A stretch of 64,000 nucleotides of DNA. Source: an uncultured Acidimicrobiia bacterium (GTDB lineage: Bacteria; Actinomycetota; Acidimicrobiia; Acidimicrobiales; AC-14). The stretch spans positions 128,001 to 192,000 of the forward strand of contig CAWIIV010000024.1 in NCBI GenBank assembly GCA_963836205.1. Reading direction: 5' to 3'. Made by a program: the position numbers and the translations under genes. This document shows positions 8,995 to 36,345 of this stretch, one piece after another (the stretch's first letter is position 1; every line of letters starts with the position of its first letter). The notes beneath the pieces were generated by a model that did no database searches, was not told the origin of the DNA, and worked only from the letters and a program-made list of their open reading frames with translations.

Positions 8995-9996
<1,002 letters not shown>

Positions 9997-16938: not shown

Positions 16939-17836
16939 GGACGGGCCCGAACAGGTCGCCGTGCTCGGTCACCCGGTCGAGGACCGCGGGGGCCTCGAAG
17001 ACGAGGGAGTCGGCGTCGCCGCTGGTGGCGGCTTCGGCCACCTCGTCCCACGTCACGGGCGTCGACACCGTGGGGCGGGGACGGGCCCGGAGGGAGTAGA
17101 TCGAGATGGTGGTCTTGTGCTCGTCGTTCTGGCTCCAGTCGATGAAGACCTTGCCCGTGCGCAGCTCCTTCTTCATCAGCGACAGGATCTGCTTGGGATG
17201 CTCGGCCTCGAGCAGGCGGGCGAGGGCGTGGGCGAAGGGCTTCGTGTCGTCGTAGGTGACGGTGGTGTTGAGGGGCACGTAGATCTGGAGCCCCTTCGAC
17301 CCCGACGTCTTGGGGAACGATTGAAGTCCGAGCCCGTCGAGAGCCTCCTTGAGGAGCAGCCCGACCTGGCAACACTCGAGGAGGGCGGCCGGCGGGCCGG
17401 GGTCGAGGTCGAAGACCAACATCGTCGGCCGCTGGTTCTCGGGCGCCCGCGACAACGACGGGTGGAGCTCGAGGGCGGCCAGGTTGGCCATCCACACGAG
17501 GGTGGGGAGGTCGTCGGCGACGCAATAGTCCATGAGCTCGTTCTTGCGCCCGGCGTACACCGGCGTGGTCGCCACCCACGGTGGCCGGTGCTTCGGACAG
17601 TTCTTCTCGTAGAAGAACTGGCTGGCCACGCCATTCGGATAGCGCTTGAGCGTCAGCGGCCGCCCTTGGAGGTGGGGCACGAGCACGTCCGCGATGCGGG
17701 TGTAGTAGTCGATCACCTGGCCCTTGGTGAATCCGGCCTCGGGATACAGCACCTTCTCAAGGTTGGAGAGCGAGAGCTGCCGCCCCCCGACCTCGACCAC
17801 CACCTCCGTCTTGCCCCCGCTCGACGACGGACTCAT
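16898..17836 (-). CDS. ligD: NHEJ LigD polymerase/primase domain, stand-alone
   Basis: LSNLEKVLYP, KRYPNGV...FYEK, ALELHP, FDLDPG, KTSGSKGLQIY, FIDWSQN. Confidence 0.92.
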   Translation of the reverse strand: MSPSSSGGKTEVVVEVGGRQLSLSNLEKVLYPEAGFTKGQVIDYYTRIADVLVPHLQGRPLTLKRYPNGVASQFFYEKNCPKHRPPWVATTPVYAGRKNELMDYCVADDLPTLVWMANLAALELHPSLSRAPENQRPTMLVFDLDPGPPAALLECCQVGLLLKEALDGLGLQSFPKTSGSKGLQIYVPLNTTVTYDDTKPFAHALARLLEAEHPKQILSLMKKELRTGKVFIDWSQNDEHKTTISIYSLRARPRPTVSTPVTWDEVAEAATSGDADSLVFEAPAVLDRVTEHGDLFGPVLTLEQPLPDPPAV

Positions 17837-18652
17837 GAGACTCGATGCTACGGCGAGGGCAGGTGGATGGCGGGGACAGGGTGGCCGGGTCTCCCCGCGC
17901 CACGAGGCACATAGCGAATGCGCCCGCCAAGGGCGGGCTCGTGGCGAACCTAAGATTTAGGTGCAGGAGCGCAGCCTTTACGACTCGTGGGGGGACGGCG
18001 ATCCTCCGGGCATGGCCGATCGAGGAACGGGCCTATTGATAGCAGGAAGGGGAATGCTCCTACTCCTCATCGGTTTCGCGCCACTGCTACAAGCTCCTGG
18101 CACGCGTGGATCCGCCGGGTCGGAAGTTGACGGTCGATATACGGTATGGCGACGCCGTTTCAGAGCGGGCACGAAACAGATCGCACTCATCTGCGGGAAA
18201 AACAGCCCTAGGTGGGATCGTGGTTGTTGTCGGAGTCATCGTCGAGGCCATTGCTTAGCCGTGTTCCGAGGTTCCCTCGACCGCTTCTCCAGGGCGCCCG
18301 CATCCGGACCCGTTTGGGGGATCTCGTCTGAGTGGAGAGAGGGGATCCGCGTCGCCCGGCAACCGACAAAGACGCAGGTAAGGGAGCCTATGGCGCGGGC
18401 CCTCCCTCCTTCCGCTCCAGGTCCGAGGAGCCTTCTCGGCGACCCGTTCCTCCAGGAGCGGAGAACCTTGTTTGGTCCGATCCGTCACCAGATGAGAGCC
18501 GAGGCCAGCCGAGGTTCGGAACCTTGTCTCACAAGGGTGTCTTCGATGACTCCCGCTCCCCTAGGACGGTGGGGCGCCCCGATCACGACTTGATACTAGG
18601 CGCTCAATCGGCGTGTCTGTCTTTCATCTGCTCAAGAATTGAGGAAATCGAC

Positions 18653-20518: not shown

Positions 20519-23500
20519 TCACTTCCGCAGCGCCATCCGGTGGGCGACCGACGCCGCCTCGACCCGGCTGACGACGTTGAGCTTGGCCAGGATGTGGGAG
20601 ACGTGGACGCTCGCCGTCTTCTCGCTGATGAAGAGGGTGTTGGCGATCTGGCGGTTCGACGCCCCCTCGGCGATGAGGTCGAGCACCTCCCGCTCGCGGG
20701 ACGTGAGGCCGAAGGGGGCGGGTTCGGCCGGCGCGGCGGCGGCGGCCCCCGACCCGTCCCCGGCCGCGTCGTCCGCCGGCGACTCGACCACCGCGATCCG
20801 AGCCCGGGTCGCCAGCTGCTCGATCTCGGCCTGGAACGGCGCCGCGCCCAGAGCCACGGCTGTGGCGTGGGCCGACCGGAGCAGGCGGGTGGCGACGGCC
20901 ACCCCTCCGCCCTCCCGCAGGTAGAGGGTCGCCTCCGCCCCCCGGTAGCGGGCGTAGGCCGCCGGATAGGGCTGGCCCACCGCGTCCCACGCGGCGGCGG
21001 CGTCGACCCACAGGTGGGGGGCGGGGGTGCCCTCCACCCGGGCGTGCTCGGCCGTCGCCAGCCGCTGGTAGGCGTCGATGATGCCGGCGTAGGCGAAGGG
21101 CAACAGCGACGACGCCGCCACCATCTGGGCCATGTCGGACATCAGGTCGGCGGCGGTTGCCAGGGCCGACGCCAGTTCCACCGGCGAGTGCCGCGCCCGC
21201 GCCCGCTCGGCCCGGTCGCCGTGGGCCCGCAGGCCGTGCCAAAGGAGCGGGGCCCCGAACCAGGGGTTGTCGGTGCCGCCCAGCGCCTTCAGCCCGTCCT
21301 CCACCGCGTCGCAGGCCTTGTCGAGGTCGCCCTGCCACATGGCCAGCCCCGCGGTGAGGGTGCTCAGCGGCGCCCGGTACTGGGGCGCGAGGGCCCGGGC
21401 CGACAGCGCCCGGGCGGTGTCGAGGTCGGCGGCGGCGTCGGCGAACCGGCCCCGTCCCACCGACATCCGGCCCCGGGCCAGGTACAGGTCGATGGCCGCC
21501 GTCCCGCTCGGCCGCAGGGCCATGGCCTCGTCGAGCAGAGCGTCGGCCTCGTCCCACCGCCCGAGCCGGAACAGACCGTTGGCTGCCGCCGCCAGCAGGG
21601 ACACGCCGTGGACCCGGTCGATGCCCAGGGAGCGGACCCGTCGCAGGCCCTGGGTGGCGGTGGCGACGGCCTCGTCGACCCGGTTGAGGGGACCGGACAG
21701 CAGCTCCGACAGGCTGAGATAGGCGCGGCCGACGTCGTCCGGGCGCCCGTCGTCCTCGAGGATGCGGATGGCCTCCCGGAGGTGGGCGATGCCGCTCTCG
21801 TCCTCCCCGAGCAGGACCAGGTCGGCGCCCAGGGTGGCCAGGGCCTGGCCCTCGTAGGGGCGGGAGTCGAGGCTGCGGGCCAGGGCCACCGCCTCCTCGG
21901 CCTGGACCCGCGACTCGCGGTACCGGCCCGCGAGCATGAGCGCCTGGGCCACCGACGCCACCACCCGGGCCCGTTCCGCCACCTGGCCCGCCCCCGCGCC
22001 CACCAGGGCGACCGCCTCCTCGTAGGCCACGAGCGCGGACTCGGTCTCGCCCGCGGCCCACAGGTAGCGGCCGAGGGACTCCTGGAGCAGGCCGGCCGCC
22101 ACCGGGTCGACGGTGGGGTCGACGCCGGACAGGGCCTTGCCGACGAGGATGCGAGCCCGGTCGTCGTCGCCCGCCAGGTGGGCGGCTTCGGCGGCCCGGG
22201 CCCGCAGCGTGGTGCGGTCGCAGCCGGCGAGACGTTCGGGATCGCGGGCCCGGCTCCAGAGTTGAAGGGCCCGCTCATAGTGGCTCTGGGCTTCGGCGAA
22301 GCCGTGCAGGCCCTGGGCGACGACCGCGGCCTCGACCGCGGCCGGCACCGCCCGGTCGGCGTTTTGGGCCGCGTACCAGTGGTAGGCCACCTCGGCCACG
22401 TGCTCGCCGGGGCTGTCGGCCAGCTCGGGGTGGAGGCTGAGCGCTTCCGCGTAGCAGGCATGGAGGCGGGCCCGTTCCTCGAACAGCAGCTCGCCGTAGG
22501 CCACCTCCCGCTGCAGGGCGTGGCGGAAGCGGTAGGTGCGGCGGTCGGAGTCGAACACCAGGAGCTGGTGGTCGATTGCTTCCCGGAGAGCGTCGTCGAG
22601 GGCGTCGTCGGCGATGCCGGTGGCCGCTCCCACCAGCCAGTGGGCCACCTCCCCGCCACCGACCGCGGCGGCCCGCAACAACCGCTGCGACGCGGGCGAG
22701 ACCACGCCCAGGCGGGCGGTGAGCATGTCGTGCAGTGTCAGGGGCAGACCCTGCTCGTCGCCCTGCTCGGCGGTGGCGAGCAGCTCTTCGGCGTGGAACG
22801 GGTTGCCTTCGCTTCGGCGCCAGATGGCGTCGACCAGCTCGGGCCGGGGCGGCTCGCCCCGGATGCCGGTGAGCTGCGCCACCAGCTCGTCGCGGTCGAA
22901 GCGGCCGAGCTCGAAGCGGTCGACCCGACCCCGCCGGTAGAGCTCGGCCAGGTACCGCCGGAGGGGATGCCGGCTGGGCAGCTCGTCGCTGCGATAGGTG
23001 ACGACCACGAGCACCGGTTCGTTCATGAGGTTGACGAGGAGGAAGGTGAGCAGGTCGCGGGTGGAGCTGTCGGCCCAGTGGGCGTCCTCCACCACCAGCA
23101 GCACGGGCGCCCGCTCCCCGAGCCGGCCGAGGACGTCACGCACCGTCTCGAACAGCCGCGCCCGCGACGTCGGCCCCGCGGGGCCGCTGTCCTCCTCCGG
23201 CTCGAGCGTCCGCCGCAGCTCGGGGACGAGGCGGGCGATCTCATGGGCGCCCGGCCCGAGCACGTCGGCCCGTTCGGAGCCCGAGGTGGCCCGCATGAGG
23301 TTGCGGAGGGCCTCCGCGATCGGGCTGTACGGCAGCCCGTCCTCGGTGGCCTCGATGCAGCTCCCGACGAGGACCCACGCCCCCGCCGCGGAGGCACGGC
23401 GGGCGAGCTCGCCGACCAACCGGCTCTTGCCCACGCCCGCCTCGCCGCCGACGATGACCGCGTTGGGCTCCCCCGCCGCGGCTCGGTCGAGGGCGGCCGA

Positions 23501-23560
23501 GAGCTGTTCCAATTCCTGCGTCCGCCCGAGGAACGGTGCGCTGAGGACTCGGCCAGGCAC
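20519..23560 (-). CDS. large ATP-binding LuxR-family regulator (AAA + TPR + HTH)
   Basis: GEAGVGKS, VVEDAHWAD, SEGNPF, C-terminal LTSREREVL...ISEKTASVHVSHILAKL. Confidence 0.92.
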   Translation of the reverse strand: MPGRVLSAPFLGRTQELEQLSAALDRAAAGEPNAVIVGGEAGVGKSRLVGELARRASAAGAWVLVGSCIEATEDGLPYSPIAEALRNLMRATSGSERADVLGPGAHEIARLVPELRRTLEPEEDSGPAGPTSRARLFETVRDVLGRLGERAPVLLVVEDAHWADSSTRDLLTFLLVNLMNEPVLVVVTYRSDELPSRHPLRRYLAELYRRGRVDRFELGRFDRDELVAQLTGIRGEPPRPELVDAIWRRSEGNPFHAEELLATAEQGDEQGLPLTLHDMLTARLGVVSPASQRLLRAAAVGGGEVAHWLVGAATGIADDALDDALREAIDHQLLVFDSDRRTYRFRHALQREVAYGELLFEERARLHACYAEALSLHPELADSPGEHVAEVAYHWYAAQNADRAVPAAVEAAVVAQGLHGFAEAQSHYERALQLWSRARDPERLAGCDRTTLRARAAEAAHLAGDDDRARILVGKALSGVDPTVDPVAAGLLQESLGRYLWAAGETESALVAYEEAVALVGAGAGQVAERARVVASVAQALMLAGRYRESRVQAEEAVALARSLDSRPYEGQALATLGADLVLLGEDESGIAHLREAIRILEDDGRPDDVGRAYLSLSELLSGPLNRVDEAVATATQGLRRVRSLGIDRVHGVSLLAAAANGLFRLGRWDEADALLDEAMALRPSGTAAIDLYLARGRMSVGRGRFADAAADLDTARALSARALAPQYRAPLSTLTAGLAMWQGDLDKACDAVEDGLKALGGTDNPWFGAPLLWHGLRAHGDRAERARARHSPVELASALATAADLMSDMAQMVAASSLLPFAYAGIIDAYQRLATAEHARVEGTPAPHLWVDAAAAWDAVGQPYPAAYARYRGAEATLYLREGGGVAVATRLLRSAHATAVALGAAPFQAEIEQLATRARIAVVESPADDAAGDGSGAAAAAPAEPAPFGLTSREREVLDLIAEGASNRQIANTLFISEKTASVHVSHILAKLNVVSRVEAASVAHRMALRK

Positions 23561-23621
23561 GATGCCAGTATTGCCGGAAAGCGGTGGCGCGAAGCCGGGC
23601 GCCTCGCTAGCGTGCCCGCCC

Positions 23622-24362
23622 ATGACAACTACGGCGGATGTTGTGGAGCATGTGGGTACGATCGCGGAAGCGCTCGACCGCATGGCGGAGATCGGCGTGT
23701 TGGTGGAGTTCGACCCGGACGACCCCGGGCCTCCCGGGTCCCAGGACGGGCTGGTGTGCTTCAACCACCTCTACACCAAGGTCACCAAAAGGGTCGACGA
23801 TCTGGTGAACGAAGGCGGGTTCGGCGACGGCAAGTTCATGACCGCCCTCGACGTGGCCTTCGCCAACCGCTACTTCGAGGCGATCGCGGCGTGGGAGGCC
23901 CGGCGGGTCGACGACCTGCCTCGGGTCTGGGGGGTGCTGCTCGACCGTCGGGACGTGCCCGACATCGCGTCGATCCAGTTCGCGGCGGCGGGCGTCAACG
24001 CCCACATCAACCTCGACCTCGCGATCGCACTGGTGCACACCTGCAACCAGCTCGGAGTCCCCCTCGGCGCCGGTGACCAGCGGGCGGAGTACGAGAAGAT
24101 CAACGAGATCTTCGGCGACCTGTTCGCGATCTTCCGGGCGGAGTTCACCCAGGGTCGCTACGAGCACATTGACCAAGGCAAGGTCGAGCGCCATCTCGAC
24201 CGCGTCAGCCACTTCGTCGTCGACAAGGCCCGGGACGTGGCGTGGGAGAGCGCGGAGGAGATCTTCGAGCAGATGGAGCGCAGCAAGCGGCGCGCCGACC
24301 GGTTCACCAACCGGCTCGACACCATCTTCGGGTTCGCGGCGCGTGGACTGCTGATCCGCTGA
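23622..24362 (+). CDS. DUF5995-family protein
   Basis: DGLVCFNHLYTKVT, LDVAFANRYF, AGVNAHINLDL. Confidence 0.75.
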   Translation: MTTTADVVEHVGTIAEALDRMAEIGVLVEFDPDDPGPPGSQDGLVCFNHLYTKVTKRVDDLVNEGGFGDGKFMTALDVAFANRYFEAIAAWEARRVDDLPRVWGVLLDRRDVPDIASIQFAAAGVNAHINLDLAIALVHTCNQLGVPLGAGDQRAEYEKINEIFGDLFAIFRAEFTQGRYEHIDQGKVERHLDRVSHFVVDKARDVAWESAEEIFEQMERSKRRADRFTNRLDTIFGFAARGLLIR

Positions 24363-24685: not shown

Positions 24686-25468
24686 CTACTTGCCCTTCTT
24701 GACCGCGGCCAGGCTTGCTTCCAGCGCGGCCATGAGGTCGACGACCTTCGGCGCGTCGTCGGCGGCTTCCTCGACCACGATCTCCTGGCCGGCGGCCTTC
24801 TGCTCGATGAGCTGGAGGACGCGCTCCCGGTAGTCGTCCTTGTACTTGTCGGGGTCGAAGTCGGTGGTGAGGGAGTCGATGAGCTGGCGGGCCATCTTCT
24901 CCTCCCGCTCGGTGACTTCGATCTCGTCGCCGGGGACGTCGAGCTCGTCGAGCGGGTTGACCTCGTCCGGGTAGAGCATCGTCTCCAGCACGAGGGCCCG
25001 GCCCAGGGGCCGGATGGCGGCCAGGTACTGCTTGGTGCGCAGGACGACCCGGGCGATCCCGACCTTGTTGGTCTCCTGCATCGCCCGGCGCAGCAGGACG
25101 TAGGCCTTGGCCCCGCCCTTGTCGGGCGCCAGGTAGTACGGGTGGTCGTAGTAGATGGGGTCGATCTGGTCGAGGTCGACGAAATCCTCGATGTCGATCG
25201 ACCGGGTGGCCTTGGGGTCGAGGGCGTTGAGCTCCTCGGGCGAGATCATCACGTAGGTGTCGGGGCCCAGCTCGTAGCCCTTGACGATGTCCTCGTAGGG
25301 GACCTCTTCGCCGGTGGCGGCCGACACCCGCTTCTGCTTCACCCGCGACTTGCTCTTGGCGTCGATCTGGTGGAACCGGACGTCCTTGGGGGACACCGCG
25401 CTGTAGAGCTTCACCGGCACGTTCACCAGCCCGAAGCTGATGGCGCCGGACCACATCGAACGGGCCAC
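24686..25468 (-). CDS. ku: NHEJ DNA end-binding protein Ku
   Basis: RSMWSGAISFGLVNVPVKLY, IVKGYE, PYYLAP, VVDLMAALEAS; GGAGG RBS. Confidence 0.96.
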   Translation of the reverse strand: MARSMWSGAISFGLVNVPVKLYSAVSPKDVRFHQIDAKSKSRVKQKRVSAATGEEVPYEDIVKGYELGPDTYVMISPEELNALDPKATRSIDIEDFVDLDQIDPIYYDHPYYLAPDKGGAKAYVLLRRAMQETNKVGIARVVLRTKQYLAAIRPLGRALVLETMLYPDEVNPLDELDVPGDEIEVTEREEKMARQLIDSLTTDFDPDKYKDDYRERVLQLIEQKAAGQEIVVEEAADDAPKVVDLMAALEASLAAVKKGK

Positions 25469-25496: not shown

Positions 25497-26924
25497 TCAA
25501 CCGTTCTCCTTCGGAGTCATACGGCGGATCGCGTCCAACGCCCGGGCCAAGGCCTCCGGTGAGTCGGCGCCGCCCACCACCGTCCCGCCCTCGCCGACCT
25601 CCTCGACGTCCTGGTCGACGCGGACGCTGTCGCCACCCACAACGCCGATGATCGTCCCGTCCACGCGGTCGGCGTCCTGGTCGACGGCGACGGCCCCGGT
25701 CGCCCCCGGCTCGACCACGGCGCCCAGGACGAGGCCGCCGGCGGACACGTTGCCGACCCGCTGGCGGTAGAGGCGGGCCGATCCCGCCACCGCCTCCTCC
25801 CGGGCGGCCCGCGCCGAAACCGGCTCGAACAGCCGACCGCCGTGATCCCGCAGGTAGAGGACGGGGACGGCCCAGTCGCGGTCGTCGGCGTGGTCGCCGG
25901 TGGACACGGTGCGGATGGCGGTGCGGCCGAGGGCGACGGCCTCGTCGACGGTGAGTCCCGCCACCAATGCCCGGTAGAGGCCGCCGGCGAAGGCGGCCGC
26001 CCGCCGGTCGCCGATGGTGAACTGCATGGCGACCACCGCGGGGACGCCCCGCTGGACGAGGGCCGCCGCCGCACCCGCCCATACGTTGTGGTCGTCGCGA
26101 CGGCCGGTGTCGCAGGCGCCGAGGACTGCCAGGCGGACGCCCTTGGCCTGCACCATCTCCGCCACCCGCGCCGCCGGGACCACCTCGGCCGGGCCGCCGG
26201 CACCGCCGCCCCCCGCGAACACCAGCCCCCCGTCGGGGGTGCCGTGGCCGGCGAAGTGGAACACGTCCGCCCCCGCCGCCAGCGCCTCCAGCACCGAGGC
26301 CTGCCCGGCGTCGGCCACGAAGTCGGCGGTGACGCCGGCCACGCCGTCGAGGGCGGCGGCCAGGGCCTCCCGCTCGGCGGCCAGCGAGGGCAGGGGCGGG
26401 TACCCCTCGGGACTGGCGGTCGCCACCACCACCCGTCGACCGGCGGCCGCCTCGGCCGGCGCAGGCAACGGCGTGGCCACCGCCTGGTGGCGGACGATCG
26501 AGATCCGGGGGTCGAGGGCCAGGAACCCGGTCGCGTCGGGCTCGCCCGTGTGCCGGGCGACCCATGCCAGCTCCCAGGGGACGTCGGCCAGCTCGTCGGC
26601 CAGCCGGAGGCGGACCCGGAGGCCCTCGTCGTCGGCCAGCCGGGCCAGGCTGGCGTCGAACAGGCGCCGGGCACCGTCGGGGAGGAGCAGGCCGCCGAGG
26701 ATCGCGCCCAGCTCGATCTGGGCCCCGAGGTCGTCGTCGATCTGGCGGCGGTCGAGCCAGCCGATGCGAGGGGCGAGGTCGGCGGGCATCTTCACCCGCT
26801 CCTCGCGCTCGCCCTCGCCCGCGGGCGACTCGAACACCCGCACCCCGAAGGAGGCGATCAGCCCCTTCCGCCGCTTCACCTGGTCGGCGAGGACGACGAA
26901 GTCGAGGTAGCGGGTCAGCGGCAT
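25497..26924 (-). CDS. CHAT (caspase-like) domain protease with C-terminal beta-repeat tail
   Basis: LADVPWEL, catalytic FHFAGHG and VLGACDTG, VVAMQFTI, DWAVPVLY. Confidence 0.88.
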   Translation of the reverse strand: MPLTRYLDFVVLADQVKRRKGLIASFGVRVFESPAGEGEREERVKMPADLAPRIGWLDRRQIDDDLGAQIELGAILGGLLLPDGARRLFDASLARLADDEGLRVRLRLADELADVPWELAWVARHTGEPDATGFLALDPRISIVRHQAVATPLPAPAEAAAGRRVVVATASPEGYPPLPSLAAEREALAAALDGVAGVTADFVADAGQASVLEALAAGADVFHFAGHGTPDGGLVFAGGGGAGGPAEVVPAARVAEMVQAKGVRLAVLGACDTGRRDDHNVWAGAAAALVQRGVPAVVAMQFTIGDRRAAAFAGGLYRALVAGLTVDEAVALGRTAIRTVSTGDHADDRDWAVPVLYLRDHGGRLFEPVSARAAREEAVAGSARLYRQRVGNVSAGGLVLGAVVEPGATGAVAVDQDADRVDGTIIGVVGGDSVRVDQDVEEVGEGGTVVGGADSPEALARALDAIRRMTPKENG

Positions 26925-27967
26925 CGGGCCCGAACCCATCGACCGACGTCGGGCAGCCACCCGAGGGCCGCCAGGGGGGCGACGAAGCCGACCACCATGA
27001 CCACGCGGAACCCGGGCCGCAGCCATGGGAGCAGCAGTGCCACCGGCAGGGCCATGAGCAGGAGCAGGTGGAGGGTGCCCGCCAGCCGCAGTGACTCCGG
27101 CTCGCCGCCGGCAGCCACCGCGCCCGACAACGCCCAGCCCCCGGCCGCGCCCAGCCCGAGCACGGCCAGCAACGTCGCCGCCCGGGCCCCGAAACCGTAT
27201 GCGAGCCCGCCTCCGGCCCACGCCCCCACGACCAGCGCCACCAGCCCGACGTGGAGCACCCACGCGTAGACCACCGTCAGCTGCGGGAGTGAGATCCGCC
27301 CGTCGTCATCGGCCCGGGCGCCCATGGCGATGGCGGTCGACCAGGCCCCGCAGCGGGCGTCGTTGGCCAGATCGCGAAGCCCGCCGTGGACCCCGTTGGC
27401 GAGCACGATGAACACCGTCCAGAAGGCGAACAGCCACCACGTGAGCGCCGTCCACGGCCCCCGGACGGCGGCCCCGTAGAGGAACAACGACGCCCACCCC
27501 AGGCCCTGGGCCACGTCGAGCAGCCACGGCACGGGCGAGCGCTTGCCCCACCCGTCGTAGACGGCCATGAGGGCGAAGGCCACCACCAGGGCGGCCAACG
27601 CCCGTCCGCCCCCGTCCCCCGAGGCCACCGCCACCGCCAGGCTCGCCGCCGCCCCGGCCAACGCCAGCGCCAGCGCCACCCCTGGACCGACCGAGCCCCG
27701 CACGAGGGGGCTGACCGCCCGGCGGGGCTCGTGGCGGTCGATGGGCAGGTCGACCACGTCGTTGAGCAGGTAGGCGAACAGGTGGTAGCCGAGGGCGACC
27801 GCCACCAGCACGCCGGCCGTCCCCCACGGCAACGACGGCGACACCGACGCCGCCCCCAGCAGGGGCATGGCGAGCGTGCCGCCGAGGGCCGACAGCCGCA
27901 CGAACAGCCCGAGCGCCTGCAACCGCCGGTGGCGGCGCACCACCGGCGCCCACGTGGTCCGGGTCAC
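26915..27967 (-). CDS. UbiA-family prenyltransferase
   Basis: YLLNDVVDLPIDR (NDxxDxxxD) followed by SPLVRG; second motif RDLAND; multi-TM; GTGA coupling to the upstream ATPase. Confidence 0.82.
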   Translation of the reverse strand: MTRTTWAPVVRRHRRLQALGLFVRLSALGGTLAMPLLGAASVSPSLPWGTAGVLVAVALGYHLFAYLLNDVVDLPIDRHEPRRAVSPLVRGSVGPGVALALALAGAAASLAVAVASGDGGGRALAALVVAFALMAVYDGWGKRSPVPWLLDVAQGLGWASLFLYGAAVRGPWTALTWWLFAFWTVFIVLANGVHGGLRDLANDARCGAWSTAIAMGARADDDGRISLPQLTVVYAWVLHVGLVALVVGAWAGGGLAYGFGARAATLLAVLGLGAAGGWALSGAVAAGGEPESLRLAGTLHLLLLMALPVALLLPWLRPGFRVVMVVGFVAPLAALGWLPDVGRWVRARCR

Positions 27968-30900
27968 GCGTCGGTCCACCGTTCGAGGCGGTAGTCGGCC
28001 TTCCGCAGCATGTCCAGCGGGCCGGGCGTGATCTTGCGCACGAAGGCTTTGGCGTCCTTGGCCGTGGCCAGGGCGCCCAGGATCCCGGTCAGCAGCCCGA
28101 CCCGCATCTTGGGATGGAACAGCGCCTGGTGGACCCCGTTGTTGTAGAACCCGACCCACACCACGTAGCGCCGCACCACCTCCACGTCGCCCCGCTGGGC
28201 CACCAGCAGCCGCAGCCGGTCGGGGGCGCCGACGTCGCGCAGGAACAGGTCGACGGTGTCGGGGTGGAGGACTCTCATGGTGGCCAGGGTGGTGGCCAGG
28301 CTGTCCTCCACGGCCGGGTCGAGCAGCTGGGGGACCGACTCCCGCAACGTCTCCAGCACCGCCTGGGGATACGAGAAGCCGACCGGCGCCAGCCCCCGGA
28401 TGACCCGGTCGAGCAGGGCCGGATCGCCCCCGGCAGCCGCGCCCGACAGGAGCGTCCCCAGGTAGGTCATGGGCCCGCCCCGCTTGCCGTAGGCCAGCCC
28501 GAGGGGGAGGAGGTCGATCTCGAACGGGACGCTCGTCCCCCCGTCGGCGGCGAGGAACGCGGGCCGGTTCTCGTCCACGAACGTACGGGTGAGGTCCTCC
28601 AGCAACCCGACCCACCCGGTCGGTGCCTTCTCCACCAGCACCGCGAACGCCCACAGCGCCCACCGCCGCCCGTTGTCGTCGAGCCGGTCGAACAGCCCCC
28701 GGACGAAGGCGTCGGTGCCCGCGGGGTCGTGGAACGAGTGGATGGCAATCACCATCCCGCCCACCATCCGGGTCTGGGAGAAGGGCGACTGGAGGAGGGC
28801 GGCCAGGTCGTCGGCCCGAGCCCCCACGTCGGTGGCGGGGTCGACGAGCGGGACGACCCGGCCGATGGCCTTCCGGTCCGACGCGAAGAACCGGCGGGCC
28901 TCGTCGGGGCTGCTGAACAGGAACGTCTCCAGCAGGCGCTTCGCGTAGACCTGGGCCACCAACGGGGTGGCCACCTTCACCAGCGCCTTCACGTTCAGCA
29001 GGTGGAGCTTGAGCCGGTTGCGCAGCACCTCGTGCCAGAGGGCACTGGTCTGGGCCACCACGTCGGCCCGGTCGGGGTGGTTGACGTAGATCAGGATCGA
29101 CAGCCCGGCCAGGAAGTCGAGGACCAGGCGGTCGTTCTTGCGGAGGATCTGGCCGCTGATGGTGACCGTCGACGCCAGGTCGGTGAGGAGCTGCACCGGC
29201 AGGCAGCCGGGGTCGTCCGGCCGCCAGCGGAGGTAGGCGTAGAGGCAGGCCGCCTGGCGCACGACGTCGCGGCTGTCGACCGCCGCCCGCCGGAACACGT
29301 CGAGCGCCCCCGCGGCGGCGGCCGCCTTGAGGGCCACGTTCCAGGCGTCGGCCGATTGGGTGGCCAGCAGGCGGAGCATGGTGTCGAGCGCCCGCCGCCC
29401 GTTCGCCCCCCCGTCCTTGGCCGCCAGCTGCACCAGGGCCTCGGTGGCCAGGCCCCGCAGCTCGACCTCGGCTGCCACCGCCATCGTCTCCACCAGCCCC
29501 ACCAGCCGGTCCGGCCCACCGGGCGGGGGCGGGGCCAGGCCCACCTCGACCGCGGTGCGGACGTCGTCGTAGATCGCCGCCGGGCCGCCGGGCGCCTCCT
29601 GCTGGCGGGCCCGGAACCCGGGGTCGAGCACGACGTCGAACAGCTCGCCGGTGCGGGTGGCCCGGTCGGCGGGCCGGTCGAGGGCGCCCAGGCTGGCGGC
29701 CATGTGGCGGACGAGGTTGCGCAGGCAGTAGCCGTCGTCGCAGTTGGCCCAGTCACCACCCCACAGGTCGGCCCGCGCCCGCTGGTAGTGGCGGACGATG
29801 CGGTCGTGCTGCTTGGGCGGGGCCACGTAGAAGCGGTTGTCGGAGCCGCGGTCGTCGATGTAGCGGGTGGCCAGGAAGTCGGCCAGCGACCGGTGGTAGA
29901 GCCGCCACCCGCCGCCGCTGCCTCCACCTCCGGCGGTGCCGCCCTCGGGGGTCGGCTCCCACTCGGTGACCTGCTCCACCGATTGGAGGAAGCGGCTGAG
30001 GTCGTCGTCCTCCCACTCCAGCCAGCCCAGGAGGCGGTCGGCGGGGGCAGCCGGCAGGGCCACGCTGATGCTGCCCAGCAGGGGCTGGTAGCGCTCGCCC
30101 CAGGCTGGGCCCCGGTCGCGGTCGTCGAAGCCGGGGACGATGCGCTGGAGGTACTGGCGGTAGAGGTCGAACAGGCCGGTGGGCAGGTCGGCGGTGTCGG
30201 TGAGGGGACGGGTGCCCTTGGCCAGCTCGTCGAGCAGGAAGTCGATGAACAGGAAGTTCCCGGCCGCCTGCCGGGCCAGGCGCTCGACCACCGAGTCGAC
30301 GGTGGCCGGCGCCTCGATGCGGGCGGCCAGGCCGTCGGCGTCCAGCCGGGTGCGCACGAACCGGCGGACGTCGGCCTCGTTCGCCACCGCCCCGTCGCCG
30401 GAGGAGAGGTCGAGGTGGCGGACGTCGCCCCCGAACCCGTCCGTCAGCCGGGTCACGAGGGCCCGCTCGTTGCGGCTCGTGACCAGGAAGCGGACGTTGC
30501 CGGGCAGGCTGCCGGAGCGGGCCAGGAGCGACACGACCGTGGGCTCGGGGCCGCCGAACGCCTCGTCCACCCCGTCCACCAGGACGGCGAAGGTGCGGTC
30601 GGGGTGGGCCTCGGCCATGGTCCGCAGCGGCTCCACCACCCCCTGGGCGTAGCGGTCGCGGGCGTCGGGGATCTTGACGTCGAGGTCACCCACATGGCCG
30701 ACGACGGTGCCCTGGTTGACGCCCACCTCCTGGTGGACGAGCTCGGGCAGGTTGACCCGGAGGAAGGCGTCGGCGAACTCGGGGTGGCGGGCGGACAGTT
30801 GGTTGACCAGGCTGGTGACGAACCAAGCGGGGGTGATGTCGGCCCCGTCCTGGCCCCTGGTCATGCAGAAGCAGGCGGCCGACCACCCCGCCCGCACCCC

Positions 30901-31110
30901 TTCGAGGGCGGCGGCGTCGTCGGCCGCCGTTGGGGCCGGGCCCGCTCCCGCCAGCCAGGCGGCCAGCACCGACTTGCCCGATCCGGGCTCGCCGGTCAGG
31001 AGGAAGAGACGCTCGGACCCGGTGCCGAGCCACTCCGCCACCTGGTGCAGGGCCCACTCCCGGCCCACCAGGCCGGCCGCCTTCTGGCCGATGACGGCCG
31101 GGATGCGCAC
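27964..31110 (-). CDS. STAND/NACHT-like P-loop NTPase with C-terminal helical region
   Basis: LVGREW, Walker A GEPGSGKS, Walker B VLVDGVDE, RFLVTSR, AAGNFLF, LYHRSLADFL. Confidence 0.85.
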   Translation of the reverse strand: MRIPAVIGQKAAGLVGREWALHQVAEWLGTGSERLFLLTGEPGSGKSVLAAWLAGAGPAPTAADDAAALEGVRAGWSAACFCMTRGQDGADITPAWFVTSLVNQLSARHPEFADAFLRVNLPELVHQEVGVNQGTVVGHVGDLDVKIPDARDRYAQGVVEPLRTMAEAHPDRTFAVLVDGVDEAFGGPEPTVVSLLARSGSLPGNVRFLVTSRNERALVTRLTDGFGGDVRHLDLSSGDGAVANEADVRRFVRTRLDADGLAARIEAPATVDSVVERLARQAAGNFLFIDFLLDELAKGTRPLTDTADLPTGLFDLYRQYLQRIVPGFDDRDRGPAWGERYQPLLGSISVALPAAPADRLLGWLEWEDDDLSRFLQSVEQVTEWEPTPEGGTAGGGGSGGGWRLYHRSLADFLATRYIDDRGSDNRFYVAPPKQHDRIVRHYQRARADLWGGDWANCDDGYCLRNLVRHMAASLGALDRPADRATRTGELFDVVLDPGFRARQQEAPGGPAAIYDDVRTAVEVGLAPPPPGGPDRLVGLVETMAVAAEVELRGLATEALVQLAAKDGGANGRRALDTMLRLLATQSADAWNVALKAAAAAGALDVFRRAAVDSRDVVRQAACLYAYLRWRPDDPGCLPVQLLTDLASTVTISGQILRKNDRLVLDFLAGLSILIYVNHPDRADVVAQTSALWHEVLRNRLKLHLLNVKALVKVATPLVAQVYAKRLLETFLFSSPDEARRFFASDRKAIGRVVPLVDPATDVGARADDLAALLQSPFSQTRMVGGMVIAIHSFHDPAGTDAFVRGLFDRLDDNGRRWALWAFAVLVEKAPTGWVGLLEDLTRTFVDENRPAFLAADGGTSVPFEIDLLPLGLAYGKRGGPMTYLGTLLSGAAAGGDPALLDRVIRGLAPVGFSYPQAVLETLRESVPQLLDPAVEDSLATTLATMRVLHPDTVDLFLRDVGAPDRLRLLVAQRGDVEVVRRYVVWVGFYNNGVHQALFHPKMRVGLLTGILGALATAKDAKAFVRKITPGPLDMLRKADYRLERWTDA

Positions 31111-31775: not shown

Positions 31776-32360
31776 TCAGGACGACTGCGTGGCGATGACC
31801 CGGTCGTCGTCGGGACCGTCGTCGGTGCGGACGATCTCGGTCTGGGCGACGTCGAGAAACTCGGCGAAGGCGGCGTCGACCGCCGCCTGCAGGTCCAGGA
31901 GGGTCATGGAGGGCATCTCGTACCTCAGCGCCTCCAGGCTGTCCTCCACCGCCTTCAGCCGGTCGTGCCCCGCCTCCGACAGCGCCGCCGGCCCACCTGT
32001 CTCGACCACGATCTGCTTGGCCGAGGCCCACGTGACGCACCCGTCGCACTCGATGTTGGTGGCCAGCCCCTCGTTGTGGGGAGCGAACGTCGACGGAGGC
32101 TTGGTCACGAGGACAAGTTGGAAGGCGGCCGCGAGGGTCTGGCAGTCGGTGCACCTGGCCACTGCGTAGGCCCGGTTCTCCTCGTCGACGACGCCGTTGG
32201 CCGCCTTCCGGTAGTCGACGCTCGCCCGGACCATGGCCCGGTTGTCCTTGCGGTTGACGGCGACGACGACGTTGTCGTCGCTGGCCCCGGCGGCGGAGGG
32301 GGCGAGCACGACACTGGCGGCGATGACGGAGCTGAGAAGGGTCCGGGCCAGGCGGTTCAT
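31776..32360 (-). CDS. secreted protein with two CxxC-containing repeats
   Basis: Sec signal peptide (MNRLART...AAGA); ENRAYAVARCTDCQTLAAAFQLV and HNEGLATNIECDGCVTWASAKQIV. Confidence 0.8.
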   Translation of the reverse strand: MNRLARTLLSSVIAASVVLAPSAAGASDDNVVVAVNRKDNRAMVRASVDYRKAANGVVDEENRAYAVARCTDCQTLAAAFQLVLVTKPPSTFAPHNEGLATNIECDGCVTWASAKQIVVETGGPAALSEAGHDRLKAVEDSLEALRYEMPSMTLLDLQAAVDAAFAEFLDVAQTEIVRTDDGPDDDRVIATQSS

Positions 32361-32381: not shown

Positions 32382-34160
32382 TTAGCTGGCGGTGGTGGTC
32401 GGGGGGACGGATGTGGCGGACGACGGCTCGTCGTCGTCGGAGGCGGCCACGGTCGTGGTGGTAGACGGGGTGTCGTCGGTCGGGACGGTGGACTCGATGC
32501 CGTCGTCGACTCCATCGGTGTCGCCCAGTGCGGGAGCGGGAGGGGGCTCGGGCTCGGTGGGGCCCTCGCTCAGGTCCCAGGCCTGGCTGGGAGCGCCGTC
32601 GAACTCGGCCTCGGTGTCGGGGGTGAGGCCGGGACGCCCGGTGCCGACCTCCGAGACGGCCGCGACCGCATCGGCCACGGTGCCCCGCTCGCCGGGCTGG
32701 ATCGGCCGGTACTCGCCGTTGGGCCACCAGGTGAAGGCCAGCGCGCCCGCCAACCCGATCGTCAGCAAGGCCAGCAGCGGCCGTCCCAACCGGACCTCGC
32801 CCGCCCGCGACCAGCCCCACGAGCCCGCCTTGCGGCCGAAGCGGCTCAGCGCGTAGGCCGTACCAAGGACGGGCAGGGCGATGGCGATCACGCCCAGCAC
32901 ACCGACGACGACCGTAAGCCACTTCCCGGAGTCGAGGGCCACGCCCACGGCGTGCCATTGGAGGCCCACCGAGTCCCACGCGGTGGCGATCATCCGGGGG
33001 GCCGAGATCACCACTGTCAGCAGGCTGAACAGCAGCAGGGGCACGACGGTGAGCACCCAGAGGACCACCACGAACCGCACCCACGGCTTCAGCACCGACG
33101 CCTCCTTGCCCACCCGGCGGCCGGGCACGAAGCCGAGGAGGGTGGGCTTGATGCGGGCGAACAGGTCGGGCACCCCAACCAGGTCGGAGAGGATGTGGTA
33201 GCCGTCCATGCGGATGAACGGCAGCAGCTGGTGCACCATCTGCAGGACCTGCACCGGGATCAGCAGGAGGAGGGCCTCCACGCCCGTGACGGCCCACGCC
33301 CCGAACGTGGCCAGGGCGAAGATGGCGTTGAAGTACAGGCCGCCGAGGTCGGTGCGCAGCCGACCCCGCCGGTCGAGGCGGTAGGCGTCGGTGACGTCGG
33401 TGTAGAAGGCCGGCCACACCAGGTAGAGGCCGCAGCCCATCGCTCCCGGGCGCCCGCCCGAGTAGCGGCAGGCGGCGGCGTGGCCGAACTCGTGGAACGA
33501 GGCCGAGGCGATGGTGAGGGCGAACGTGGCCAGCATGAGCCCCGGCGAATAGAGCAGCTGGCGGGCCCCGGCGCCGACACCCCTCGCCCCGATCACCCAC
33601 GCCACCACGGCCACGAACCCGACCACGACGGGGAGGACCACCCACGGCCGGAACAGGATGGCGAACGGGGCGGTGAGGCGGTTCGTCCACTGCTCGCTGG
33701 TGAGCTGGAGGCGCAGGCGGAGGGCGAGGAGCGGGTTGGCTTTCCGGACCTGCGGGTCACTCCCGTCGGGGCTCTTGACCAGCCCCGCCGGGCGGAGCTT
33801 CTCGACCACCAGATAGCGAACGTTGTCGGCGCTGACCCGCCGCCCGATGCGCTCCCCGAGGGCGGCCGCGATCCGGGACTCGTCGCGGTGGCCGTCGATC
33901 TGCTCGAGGGTGGCGAACAGGAGCGGGGTCAGCTGGATGGTCTGGCCGTCGGCCCGGCGGACGAGGCAGGGGGGCTCCTTGTAACCGGATGCCTCGTAGT
34001 CGCCGATGAGCTCGACGCCCGTGGCCAGGCGGGGAACGTCGCCCCCGGCGCCGTCCCCAGCCGCGGGTGCGGTCCCGTTCTCGGCCGGCCTCCGATCGGG
34101 CCGGCGGCCCCGCCCCCGGACCCGGGGGATGCGCCGGGTGTCGTCCAGCTGTTGGGCCAT
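32382..34160 (-). CDS. M50/site-2 intramembrane zinc metallopeptidase with N-terminal PqqD/RRE-like domain (YydH/MpaP-like)
   Basis: FHEFGH, PAFYTDVT, QLLPFIRMDGY; N-terminal LVRRADGQTIQLT...IDG...KLRPAGLV resembles an RRE winged helix. Confidence 0.82.
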   Translation of the reverse strand: MAQQLDDTRRIPRVRGRGRRPDRRPAENGTAPAAGDGAGGDVPRLATGVELIGDYEASGYKEPPCLVRRADGQTIQLTPLLFATLEQIDGHRDESRIAAALGERIGRRVSADNVRYLVVEKLRPAGLVKSPDGSDPQVRKANPLLALRLRLQLTSEQWTNRLTAPFAILFRPWVVLPVVVGFVAVVAWVIGARGVGAGARQLLYSPGLMLATFALTIASASFHEFGHAAACRYSGGRPGAMGCGLYLVWPAFYTDVTDAYRLDRRGRLRTDLGGLYFNAIFALATFGAWAVTGVEALLLLIPVQVLQMVHQLLPFIRMDGYHILSDLVGVPDLFARIKPTLLGFVPGRRVGKEASVLKPWVRFVVVLWVLTVVPLLLFSLLTVVISAPRMIATAWDSVGLQWHAVGVALDSGKWLTVVVGVLGVIAIALPVLGTAYALSRFGRKAGSWGWSRAGEVRLGRPLLALLTIGLAGALAFTWWPNGEYRPIQPGERGTVADAVAAVSEVGTGRPGLTPDTEAEFDGAPSQAWDLSEGPTEPEPPPAPALGDTDGVDDGIESTVPTDDTPSTTTTVAASDDDEPSSATSVPPTTTAS

Positions 34161-34202: not shown

Positions 34203-34589
34203 TCAGCCGGCGACCGCGCCACCGCCCGACTGGTCGAGGTCGGCGTTCTGGGTGGCGTTGGCCACGGCCGTGCCGTCGAGGTCCTGGGAGATGATCGAGT
34301 CCTGGTCGGCCAGGGCGCCCGCCTCGGAGTCGACCGAGAGGACGTTGGCGCTGACGGCGGCGTCGATGGGCGCGGCCACGTTGGCGTTGGCCGCCACCGC
34401 GGCGTCGATGGGAGCGGCGACGTCGGCGTCGACGGCGAGGTCGACGTCGACGTTCAGCAGGGACGTCCCCAGCAGGGCCGACGGGTCGAGGGCATCGCCC
34501 AGCACCGACATCGCTTCCCGGTCGGGCACAGCGGTGACGTCCTGGGACTCGAGCTCGGCGTCGGTGATGCCGGCGGTTGCTTCCTTCAT
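34203..34589 (-). CDS. leader-bearing precursor protein 3 (acidic, Ala/Val/Asn-rich core)
   Basis: Leader ITDAELESQDVTAVPDREAMS; core paralogous to 34617-34976; GAGGAG RBS. Confidence 0.85.
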   Translation of the reverse strand: MKEATAGITDAELESQDVTAVPDREAMSVLGDALDPSALLGTSLLNVDVDLAVDADVAAPIDAAVAANANVAAPIDAAVSANVLSVDSEAGALADQDSIISQDLDGTAVANATQNADLDQSGGGAVAG

Positions 34590-34987: not shown

Positions 34988-35218
34988 CTAGTCCTCGTCC
35001 ACCTGGGTGATGATCACGATCTGGTCGGCGTCGGCGACGGCGACCGAGTTGGTGGATGCGATGTTCATGGCGGTCGCCTCGTTGATCGGCATGGCGAAGT
35101 TGTCGATCCCCAGGCCCGACCCGAGGTCGACCTTCGACATGGCCTGCCGCTCGGGCAAGGCCAACGCCTCCTCCGCTTCGAGGTCCTCGAGACTCAGTTC
35201 GTGGGCGCCGTTCGTCAC
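34988..35218 (-). CDS. leader-bearing precursor protein 1
   Basis: Leader ELSLEDLEAEEALALPERQAMS; core PINEATAMNIASTNSVAVADADQIVIITQ; GGGAG RBS. Confidence 0.82.
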   Translation of the reverse strand: MTNGAHELSLEDLEAEEALALPERQAMSKVDLGSGLGIDNFAMPINEATAMNIASTNSVAVADADQIVIITQVDED

Positions 35219-35258
35219 AGGTGCTCCCTTCGTGATCCCCGCCGTGCTGGCCGGTTTC

Positions 35259-35285
35259 CTACCCCCGTGGGCGCGGTCGAAAAAC
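35259..35285 (-). promoter_or_regulatory. putative SigB/SigF-type promoter for the precursor operon
   Basis: Minus strand GTTT-N17-GGGTAG, 40 nt upstream of the GTG start at 35218. Confidence 0.5.
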
Positions 35286-35331
35286 GCTTCGCGTCAGCAA
35301 TCGACCACCGGCGGGCGCCGGCGGGCGTCGG

Positions 35332-36345
35332 TCAGCCGGCGGGGAAGGAGGCCGCGATCTCGTCGTCCCACGTCACGTCGGTGGCGATCACGTCGGTGCG
35401 CAGGCCCTTGATCGACGGCTGGCGGAGGGTTCCGCCGTCGGTCACCTCGGTGTAGGCGACCTCGACCACGAGCAGCGGGCGGACCCAGTGGAGGGGGGCC
35501 CGGGGCGGGTTCACGAACGGTGACGACTCCACCTCGATCTGGGCGAAGAGCCGGGTGAGCTGGCGGATCATGTCCTCGTTGAGCCCGGAGCCGGCCTGGC
35601 CGGTGTAGAAGAGACGTTGCGGGCGGCCGGCGGCGTCGGCCTCCTCGGAGGCGACGTCGTACACGCCCAGGGCCAGCGAGCCGATGCTTGTCTCCCTCGA
35701 CCCGCTGCCGGTCGACCACCCGCCGACCACGAACTCGCGCCGCCGGCCGCACTTGACCTTTGACCAGGCGGTGGACCGCCTCCCGGGCAGGTAGGGGGCG
35801 TCGACCCGCTTGGCCATGAAGCCCTCCAGGCCGGCCTGGCGGCAGGCATCGATCAGCTCGGCGGGCGTGGCGTCGAGGACGGGGGCCGTCTGCCAGGCCC
35901 GGCCCTTGATGGCGAGCCCGTCGAGGATGCGCCGCCGCTCCGACTGCGGCCGGTCGACGAGCAGTTCGCCGTCGAGCCAGATGACGTCGAAGGCCACGAA
36001 CGAAACGGGCGTGTCGACCAGGAGGCGAGCGCTCGGCTGGACGACGTGCATCCGCCGCTGCAACCGCTGGAAGCTCGTCTGCCCCCTCTCGTTGAACGCC
36101 ACCACCTCCCCGTCGAGGACGGCCCGGTGGGGGTCGAGGGCGGCCGCCAGGCCCTCGACCTCGGGGAAGGTGGCGGTGGCCTCCAGGCCCCGCCGGTTGG
36201 TGAGGGTGACGTGGCCGCCGTCGACGGTGGCGATGATGCGCTGGCCGTCGAGCTTGGGCTCGAACATCCAGCCGTCGGGGTTCGCCGGGGCGCCGGTGCC
36301 GCCGGCGAGCATCGGGAGCAGGTGCGGCGGCGGGTCGTCCGGCAT
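35332..36345 (-). CDS. ligD: NHEJ ATP-dependent DNA ligase (LigD ligase domain, stand-alone)
   Basis: MFEPKLDGQR adenylation motif, LDGEVV, AFDVI, EGFMAKR, LRQPS. Confidence 0.9.
   Translation of the reverse strand: MPDDPPPHLLPMLAGGTGAPANPDGWMFEPKLDGQRIIATVDGGHVTLTNRRGLEATATFPEVEGLAAALDPHRAVLDGEVVAFNERGQTSFQRLQRRMHVVQPSARLLVDTPVSFVAFDVIWLDGELLVDRPQSERRRILDGLAIKGRAWQTAPVLDATPAELIDACRQAGLEGFMAKRVDAPYLPGRRSTAWSKVKCGRRREFVVGGWSTGSGSRETSIGSLALGVYDVASEEADAAGRPQRLFYTGQAGSGLNEDMIRQLTRLFAQIEVESSPFVNPPRAPLHWVRPLLVVEVAYTEVTDGGTLRQPSIKGLRTDVIATDVTWDDEIAASFPAG

Follow-up and report, generated by a model that had tools for sequence, protein, structure and literature searches.

The current view of bacterial NLR-like proteins is that each is a sensor encoded by one gene, and that it binds phage proteins through its C-terminal repeats. 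Here we describe a locus that resembles them and in which the switch protein is coupled to a membrane enzyme. It lies in a stretch of 64,000 nt (the window, with a G+C content of about 73%) from contig CAWIIV010000024.1 of an uncultured Acidimicrobiia bacterium, where three overlapping genes encode a STAND NTPase of the NACHT type, a UbiA-family protein and a CHAT caspase-like protease. The UbiA-family protein belongs to a small and divergent clade that we named UbiA1, and the C-terminal domain of the NTPase is called ATP_C in what follows. An original prediction, made from the letters of this stretch, had proposed a three-part signalling or defence module with the UbiA protein as effector or protease substrate. 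The adjacency of the three genes is far beyond chance, since all four close relatives keep the triplet and the NTPase-UbiA pair recurs in 39 of 80 loci across phyla.

Among the described systems, bNACHT proteins place a NACHT-type NTPase between an N-terminal effector, which varies, and C-terminal repeats, and the repeats that form their superstructures include HEAT (Kibby et al., bioRxiv 10.1101/2022.07.19.500537, main text). Our locus shares this architecture and differs from it by the linkage with UbiA, by a HEAT domain that is more conserved than the NTPase module and, in the window, by an effector encoded in a separate gene. The main text of that paper mentions neither UbiA nor prenyl groups. 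The NTP-dependent conflict systems presented by Kaur, Burroughs, Iyer and Aravind (2020) and by Kaur et al. (2021), in the main texts of PMC7159879 and PMC8195603, also combine STAND NTPases with CHAT/caspase-like, TIR and trypsin effectors, and with effector-associated domains (EAD) as adaptors. The likeness extends to an EAD7 pairing, seen in a single one of our loci (L067), and to taxa that are mainly filamentous or otherwise 'multicellular' bacteria. These two main texts contain no mention of UbiA, prenyl or carotenoid, nor, respectively, of lipid (PMC7159879) and isoprenoid (PMC8195603). Avs proteins, in the text available from bioRxiv 10.64898/2026.01.04.697583, join a STAND switch to an effector at the N-terminus and a helical sensor at the C-terminus; their sensors bind phage proteins, whereas the domain in the sensor position co-occurs here with an endogenous membrane enzyme. 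The Avs4 sensor region was among the weak structural matches of ATP_C (Z 6.9, not above background), and no PADLOC Avs model matched the triplet proteins. In summary, NACHT-HEAT proteins with TIR, CHAT or EAD N-termini are of a known kind, and a conserved pairing with a UbiA-family enzyme was not found described. Our literature searches returned no paper linking UbiA or prenyltransferases to STAND/NACHT, CHAT, effector-associated domains or NLR phage defence, even if supplements may list such neighbourhoods; this agrees with the original remark that no described system of this composition is known. A 2025 paper on lipocones mentions, in its available text, a UbiA-like enzyme only beside the YfiM-1 lipocone and without link to STAND proteins, and the main text of the 2026 Avs preprint likewise ties neither UbiA nor prenyl groups to them.

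The three genes are all on the minus strand, and the phase of the frame plot of G+C content at third codon positions (GC3) changes exactly at their junctions. The features are the following:

27964..31110, minus strand: STAND (NACHT-type) NTPase gene, 1048 aa, without N-terminal effector domain (GC3, Pfam, Walker motifs)

29566..31110, minus strand: nucleotide-binding/oligomerisation (NOD) module, NTPase residues 1-515 (Pfam, alignment to locus L023)

27967..29565, minus strand: HEAT-like alpha-solenoid domain ATP_C, NTPase residues 516-1048 (AlphaFold2 model, locus profile)

26915..27967, minus strand: UbiA1, divergent UbiA-family predicted intramembrane prenyltransferase, 350 aa (Pfam UbiA, Asp motifs, model)

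25497..26924, minus strand: CHAT caspase-like protease, 475 aa, soluble (Pfam CHAT, His/Cys dyad)

Direct reading of the sequence confirmed the two overlaps claimed originally. The stop codon of the NTPase (TGA 27966-27964) overlaps the start codon of UbiA1 (GTG 27967-27965), the two sharing 4 nt in GTGA. The CHAT gene starts at ATG 26924-26922 and thus overlaps by 10 nt the end of UbiA1, whose stop codon is TGA 26917-26915; an alternative in-frame start at ATG 26939 would extend this overlap to 25 nt. For the NTPase the start codon is GTG 31110, and an in-frame ATG at 31185, as an alternative, would add only 25 residues. Beyond position ~31150 the codon phase shifts to an open reading frame (ORF) of the plus strand, without family match, so the operon apparently starts at the NTPase. 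At the other end, the Ku gene starts at GTG 25468 behind its own AGGAGG, 29 nt past the CHAT stop, and does not overlap the triplet. Among the sequencing runs listed for this DNA there were six DNA runs, with small shares, and no RNA run.

We searched for UbiA1 loci to analyse their neighbourhoods. A word-indexed search scored 8000 candidates and gave 61 proteins at E<=1e-5, and a scan with a 31-sequence alignment confirmed 124 loci, of which the best 80 were kept. We then used an ATP_C profile built iteratively from NTPase residues 516-1048. ATP_C was present in 39 of these 80 loci, always as the C-terminal ~510 residues of a same-strand ORF ending at the UbiA1 start. According to record titles, these 39 loci have seven phylum labels: 21 Chloroflexota, 12 Actinomycetota, 2 Pseudomonadota and one each of Cyanobacteriota, Acidobacteriota, Gemmatimonadota and a metagenome-assembled genome (MAG) labelled 'Gracilibacteria'. 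In ten other loci the upstream gene encodes a STAND protein of the type Guanylate_cyc-AAA_16-TPR, from which UbiA1 is usually separated by a Caroten_synth/CruF-like gene, and in one it encodes a TIR-NB-ARC-TPR protein. Six have upstream a divergent protein of ~900-1400 aa with a NUDIX end. Once one excludes the six loci that have less than 1.2 kb of upstream sequence and are not assessable, a STAND NTPase gene precedes UbiA1 in 50 of 74 loci. We also drew a quick maximum-likelihood tree from 74 rows of UbiA1, seven others having been left out beforehand as too short. On it, the NACHT-ATP_C label is found on both sides of the midpoint root and changes 9 times, against a mean of 25 when labels are shuffled. 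The reciprocal test, with a 10-sequence ATP_C alignment, gave 37 loci, biased to Chloroflexota and many of them on contigs already in the UbiA1 set. UbiA1 is immediately downstream of ATP_C in 24 of the 35 assessable loci, the two others having no downstream sequence. From these results, ATP_C and UbiA1 are the constant unit across relatives.

Two groups of neighbourhoods without ATP_C deserve a description. The cyclase-STAND loci (L024, L027, L034, L036, L041, L044, L050, L054, L072, and L074) encode STAND proteins of ~1370-1435 aa, often near a second UbiA or an FA-desaturase-like gene. The loci of the NUDIX type (L037, L039, L051, L055, L082, and L085, also L011-L013) form a monophyletic UbiA1 subclade in which a second UbiA gene (UbiA2) comes after UbiA1. 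The NUDIX-ended neighbours are ~880-1400 aa long, divergently transcribed, and their N-terminal ~900 residues match no family. We considered that these proteins of ~1000 aa could be homologous to ATP_C and rejected it, as neither tblastn nor iterated jackhmmer recovered any of them.

Among close relatives, the triplet is conserved where present and its presence is patchy. A scan of species-representative genomes revealed four close loci in Acidimicrobiia/Actinomycetota MAGs, with UbiA proteins 56-85% identical to ours. The order NTPase-UbiA-CHAT is kept in all four, three of which have the triplet flanked by the genes for an ATP-dependent ligase and Ku. The ligase adjoins the NTPase directly in one of these three, and the genes found upstream of the NTPase in the window (an HExxH membrane protease, g194, g128, and g101) are thus not part of the core. 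Six of the seven other genomes of the genus have UbiA1, all with CHAT abutting Ku; it was not found in the seventh (G404, 91% complete). There was also no match to UbiA1 in G416, G419, and G410, from three other genera of the family, where lig abuts ku. In the whole class, matches at E<=1e-10 were found in 5 of 401 genomes, including the one of the window. Six of the genomes compared are flagged as unpublished and support none of the claims made here. The presence and absence of UbiA1 within the genus and the family, together with the direct lig-ku junction of sister genera, indicate that the triplet is a rare accessory insertion.

The NTPase of the window matches the Pfam profiles NPHP3_N (47.3 bits, cut-off 24.8) and AAA_16 (33.1 bits, cut-off 32.6) over residues 14-317. 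It scores below the cut-off of Pfam NACHT (19 bits for 26.7), which is passed by relatives having the same C-terminal domain. The Walker A motif GEPGSGKS is found at residue 40, its lysine being K46, and the Walker B motif AVLVDGVDE at residue 175. The position of Walker A leaves no room for an N-terminal effector domain, and the earlier description of an ATPase beginning at its P-loop domain is thus correct. The protein has no hydrophobic segment; among the three products, only UbiA1 has such segments. The layout is that of tripartite STAND proteins, with a C-terminal HEAT-like solenoid and an effector that is fused in relatives and encoded by the separate CHAT gene in the window. Pfam revealed no EAD in the NTPase or in the CHAT protein of the window, which therefore lack the EAD-adaptor pairing.

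The AlphaFold2 model of ATP_C (pLDDT 89.6, pTM 0.88) has 31 helices. Residues R37, R103, Y160, W318, H434, D436, and D439, in the numbering of the domain, are among the invariant ones. Foldseek matched it only to generic HEAT/ARM solenoids (best E 2.5e-4, no TM-score >0.28), and the best match of the wide structure comparison with VIA (Z 8.4) is at the background expected for helical repeats. We rejected an enzyme fold for this domain because both methods yield only HEAT/ARM solenoids. The best score in the ESM Atlas (0.79) is to hypothetical proteins and uninformative. In a search space of 1.84 billion representative proteins, the ATP_C profile had 547 matches up to an E-value of 1e-3; 301 of these stayed with a limit of 1e-10 and 161 with one of 1e-30. 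We then compared the conservation of the domains in 31 proteins, restricting the analysis to pairs with less than 50% identity in UbiA1 and leaving out eight loci (five with a partial or split domain, one where Walker A was not found, and two without UbiA row). In the resulting 385 distant pairs, the NOD module averages 28.9% identity, ATP_C 39.5%, and UbiA1 39.3%, and ATP_C is more conserved than the NOD module in 87% of the pairs. Pairwise identities of ATP_C and UbiA1 have a Spearman coefficient of 0.66, which is only descriptive because related sequences are not independent. Such strong conservation of ATP_C would fit a fixed endogenous partner, not a diversifying foreign ligand.

UbiA1 matches the Pfam UbiA profile (PF01040) with 56.4 bits, for a cut-off of 34.2. 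It has the motifs NDVVDLPID at residue 69 (NDxxDxxxD) and DLAND at residue 199 (DxxxD), and all 31 aligned sequences keep residues N69, D70, D73, D77, D199, and D203 unchanged. The model (pLDDT 93.3) shows a complete UbiA fold without added pro-domain. Foldseek matched it to 6m31, 4od4, and 4tq3 at E-values from 6e-7 to 2e-6, with TM-scores of 0.66-0.78 normalised to the target; the matches include DGGGP synthase and ApUbiA (0.73-0.78, normalised in the same way) as well as AfUbiA and DPPR synthase. Given the invariant Asp-rich motifs and the UbiA-like predicted fold, UbiA1 is probably an active enzyme. It shares fold and Asp-rich motifs with the housekeeping enzymes of the family (heme o synthase, MenA, UbiA, DGGGP synthase) and differs from them in reaching no NCBIfam equivalog cut-off: its best score is 42.4 bits with PRK12884, for a cut-off of 269, and all ten matches are far below. 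The genome encodes six other proteins matching PF01040, among which are, elsewhere, a heme o synthase and a MenA that pass their cut-offs, with 407 bits for 246 and 285 bits for 264, respectively. The protein of the triplet is thus not the housekeeping enzyme that the original prediction had kept in view as an alternative. The complex of UBIAD1 with HMG-CoA reductase (PDB 8djk) is also among the fold matches. UBIAD1 is a UbiA-family membrane protein whose binding to its partner depends on an isoprenoid ligand, which provides a precedent for a UbiA fold acting as the partner of a sensor. It is, unlike UbiA1, a eukaryotic regulator of the sterol pathway, acts without STAND NTPase, and its homology to UbiA1 is limited to the family fold.

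The CHAT protein matches its Pfam profile (PF12770) with 108.1 bits, for a cut-off of 24. The His/Cys dyad reported as intact in the original prediction is H227 (HFAGHG) and C271 (LGAC), both invariant in 23 of 23 aligned homologues. A sequence search of the PDB gave just two weak low-complexity matches (E 0.006), which we disregarded, and PADLOC gave a weak match to SAVED_CHAT (E 2e-6). The CRISPR type III-E Craspase TPR-CHAT and the SAVED-CHAT proteins are described as caspase-like His/Cys proteases that stay silent as long as nothing sets off a sensor complex. Our locus differs from them in having no CRISPR, SAVED or TPR part, and the activator would here be the NACHT NTPase. Residues ~360-475 of the CHAT protein (25497-25850, minus strand) form a repetitive tail of ~115 residues, rich in Gly, Val, and Asp and without family match, which falls outside the region aligning with the fused CHAT of locus L023.

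We scanned with Pfam the N-termini of the NTPases of the 39 loci and of 44 full-length ATP_C representatives chosen from 150 listed. In the 39 loci we found Pkinase (12), TIR_2 (4), CHAT (3), Trypsin_2 (1), Guanylate_cyc (1), and EAD7 (1). No domain was recognised in 14 (of which 7 are from the clade of the window, and including proteins that start with the NTPase), and in 3 the N-terminus is off the contig. In the 44 representatives we found CHAT (10), TIR_2 (10), EAD1/5/7/8 (4), Pkinase (1), Trypsin_2 (1), and no Guanylate_cyc. Eight of them begin directly with the NTPase, like the protein of the window, 9 are short or unassigned proteins where nothing was recognised, and one (P0065) is a read-through protein that contains UbiA.

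The CHAT domain exists both as a fusion and as a separate protein. Locus L023 encodes a CHAT-NACHT-HEAT fusion that is colinear with the separate CHAT and NTPase proteins of the window. Residues 26-371 of our CHAT align with residues 22-384 of the fusion (36% identity, E 1e-57), and residues 543-1046 of our NTPase, in the HEAT part, align with residues 802-1315 (34% identity, E 4e-74). Between them there are short local matches around Walker A (30-49 with 435-454) and Walker B (171-212 with 512-556). The alignments reveal a relationship of gene fission or fusion, which argues that CHAT physically works with the NTPase as its effector. A separate CHAT gene near an NTPase without N-terminal domain was found in all seven Acidimicrobiia loci of the clade of the window and in two loci of Chloroflexia (L042, L076). 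Hence, the search for NACHT-UbiA-CHAT triplets suggested in the original prediction has a mixed outcome: the NTPase-UbiA1 pair is broadly distributed, and the synteny with CHAT is restricted to these nine loci and to the three where CHAT is fused.

Two other types of neighbourhood were noticed. At L067 (5781-11496), UbiA1 is preceded by an EAD7-NACHT-HEAT gene and followed by one for an EAD7-TIR-FGE-sulfatase protein, so that a switch of this UbiA1-linked family and an effector in trans have the adaptor type in common. In L052, L057, and L060, of the Oscillochloris type, an Endonuclease_NS gene (DNA/RNA non-specific endonuclease) is convergent to the kinase-NACHT-UbiA1 pair.

UbiA1 stays beside NTPases that have TIR, kinase, cyclase, trypsin or EAD7 in place of CHAT. 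Hence, CHAT is most likely an output that can be exchanged, and UbiA1 most likely not an effector but the permanent partner of the domain on the sensor side. In this pattern the exchanged domains, whether N-terminal or in trans, resemble effectors, and the constant pair resembles the end for sensing or control. The coupled NLR-like STAND module of the original prediction is retained, with the UbiA gene syntenic with the NTPase in relatives, close (4/4) and more distant (39/80). The proposed role of UbiA as effector or substrate is not supported, since UbiA1 is kept across swapped outputs.

The interpretation that we favour, to which we give an even chance, is that the NTPase is the ATP-driven switch of an NLR-like three-gene module, in which UbiA1, or the lipid that it produces, is read by the HEAT domain and the CHAT protease serves here as the output. 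The conserved HEAT-like domain would be dedicated to the co-encoded UbiA1 and would sense either the protein or a prenylated lipid that it makes. Upon activation, the NTPase would oligomerise and turn on CHAT, recruited in trans as a separate polypeptide in this clade and fused to the N-terminus of the NTPase in other lineages. The role would most likely be in conflict, immunity or programmed cell death, or as an alarm of lipid or membrane status. A more specific scenario, possible although improbable, has UbiA1 as a sensor enzyme embedded in the membrane. Its substrate would be one that arises or builds up only with infection or envelope damage; the HEAT domain would read the prenylated lipid, or the loaded enzyme, and the NTPase would then fire the effector attached to it, here CHAT.

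Several observations weigh against the favoured interpretation. No STAND gene was seen in 18 of the 74 assessable UbiA1 loci, and 11 of the 35 assessable ATP_C genes are unlinked to UbiA1 (in 7 of these 11, UbiA1 is on another contig of the same assembly). In three loci (L026, L063, and L093) the NTPase lacks an effector at its N-terminus and there is no CHAT gene within 9 kb. Kinases, at the N-terminus in 12 of 39 loci, and cyclases are domains for signalling and not for killing. The locus is in a neighbourhood of non-homologous end-joining (NHEJ) genes and not in a recognisable defence island. The check with PADLOC that was proposed originally turned out negative, as no model convincingly matched any of the three proteins (the best for the NTPase was mad8, E 0.005). 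Lipid-tailoring genes often follow UbiA1 in relatives, which fits equally well a lipid pathway regulated by a STAND protein. Finally, fusions between ATP_C and UbiA were rejected as solid Rosetta-stone evidence, because there are only two: P0065 has a linker of ~85 residues resembling a translated spacer, and P0215 (993 aa) is from a contig with frameshifts. Eight other UbiA matches are longer than usual (616-664 aa); two have methyltransferase domains and six match only PF01040, being about as long as one would expect from UbiA1 and UbiA2 fused in tandem.

The lipid-tailoring genes bear on an alternative where UbiA1 is itself the regulated output, the STAND protein controlling, by binding of HEAT to UbiA1, how a specialised compound (an isoprenoid lipid, a quinone or a carotenoid-like molecule) is made, in physiological or developmental signalling and not in conflict. 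We regard this as possible, although improbable. Lipid-tailoring companions recur beside UbiA1 in relatives: UbiA2, closest to models of DGGGP synthase (below cut-off) and sometimes fused to UbiA1; a SAM-dependent methyltransferase, also sometimes fused to UbiA1; FAD amine-oxidase-type enzymes that are CrtO/CrtI-like or PPO/HpnE-like (below cut-offs); and CruF-like (Caroten_synth), FA-desaturase-like, P450, and GT28 (glycosyltransferase) proteins. In three Chloroploca loci (L146, L149, and L150), the end of the kinase-NACHT-ATP_C gene is overlapped not by UbiA1 but by a gene encoding an HPPD-like dioxygenase (5954-7144, plus strand), and UbiA1 is on another contig of the same assembly in two cases (L146/L078 and L150/L092). 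HPPD makes homogentisate, a classic acceptor for UbiA-family enzymes, and this neighbour is thus also a lead to the substrate of UbiA1, as are the methyltransferase, CrtI-like and CruF-like ones. The kinase N-termini (12 of 39 loci) and the cyclase one (1 of 39), the strong conservation of ATP_C and the lack of PADLOC matches point in the same direction. On the other hand, TIR, CHAT, trypsin or EAD are at the N-terminus in 9 of the 39 loci, and are effector and adaptor types of the conflict systems in the main text of PMC7159879. They are even more frequent among the 44 representatives (10 TIR_2, 10 CHAT, 4 EAD, and 1 trypsin). Furthermore, the clade of the window has lost all the tailoring genes and retains UbiA1 and CHAT, and the patchy distribution within one genus and family does not favour a physiological pathway.

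The other alternatives give UbiA1 a more direct part, or none. It could be the effector common to all systems, if the activated NTPase made it consume polyprenyl-phosphate carriers or produce a membrane-disrupting lipid and the cell were killed or arrested in this way, the N-terminal domains being second effectors. The invariant catalytic residues are compatible with this, as is the position of a membrane enzyme right after the switch, with overlapping start and stop codons. We find it unlikely, since the modular pattern does not suggest a fixed effector accompanied by a second, highly variable one, and since the 18 of 74 loci where UbiA1 has no STAND gene have biosynthetic-looking contexts. 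That UbiA1 is the substrate of CHAT, released or activated by cleavage like a gasdermin, is suggested by the overlap of the three genes and by the fact that bacterial gasdermins are encoded beside caspase-like proteases. This is very improbable: UbiA1 persists in loci where TIR, kinase, cyclase or trypsin takes the place of CHAT, its model is a complete UbiA fold lacking an extra pro-domain, and its conserved active site points to catalysis. Least credible of all, the three genes could be mere neighbours in a variable lig-ku insertion, which in some relatives does hold unrelated genes such as the HExxH protease and small ORFs. The start/stop overlaps and the adjacency of NTPase and UbiA1 in 39 of 80 loci with seven phylum labels contradict it, and UbiA1 and ATP_C co-occur in genomes even when unlinked.

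If the pairing is functional, it would link isoprenoid lipid chemistry or membrane status to the activation of NLR-like proteins and give a role to an uncharacterised UbiA clade. The clade keeps the domain in sensor position beside a catalytically intact UbiA1 as outputs are exchanged, with 161 representative clusters at E<=1e-30 and seven phylum labels. The version in the window, with a switch, an enzyme, and a protease, is compact and suited to reconstitution. Should the scenario of a sensor enzyme be true, a bacterial NLR would be activated by a lipid, with an intramembrane prenyltransferase as receptor.

The surroundings of the triplet are themselves variable. The NHEJ genes, all on the minus strand, are spread over 20 kb: the LigD primase-polymerase (16898-17956), Ku (24686-25468), and the ATP-dependent ligase (35332-36345). 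Inserted genes break up this set in the window, and the lig-ku junction looks like an insertion hotspot because the ligase abuts Ku in sister genera. Upstream of the NTPase, a gene at 32382-34160 (minus strand) encodes a membrane HExxH protein of 592 aa that resembles the intramembrane metalloprotease of daptide maturation (NCBIfam, 121.5 bits for a cut-off of 300). It is flanked by three small ORFs without family match (31776-32360, 34203-34589, and 34988-35293, minus strand), and the one of 101 aa is in tandem duplicate in the relative L001. This gene set is present in L001 and L002 and lacking in L003, which suggests a separate variable cassette, possibly related to peptide maturation. Downstream of Ku, a gene at 20519-23764 (minus strand) encodes a 1081-aa AAA_16-TPR-LuxR (GerE) regulator that is conserved beside the locus in L001 and L002. 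Farther away, at 3455-9996 (minus strand), a MoxR-type AAA_3 ATPase is encoded beside a BatA/VWA protein of 1620 aa with three VWA stretches and a GATase1-like part.

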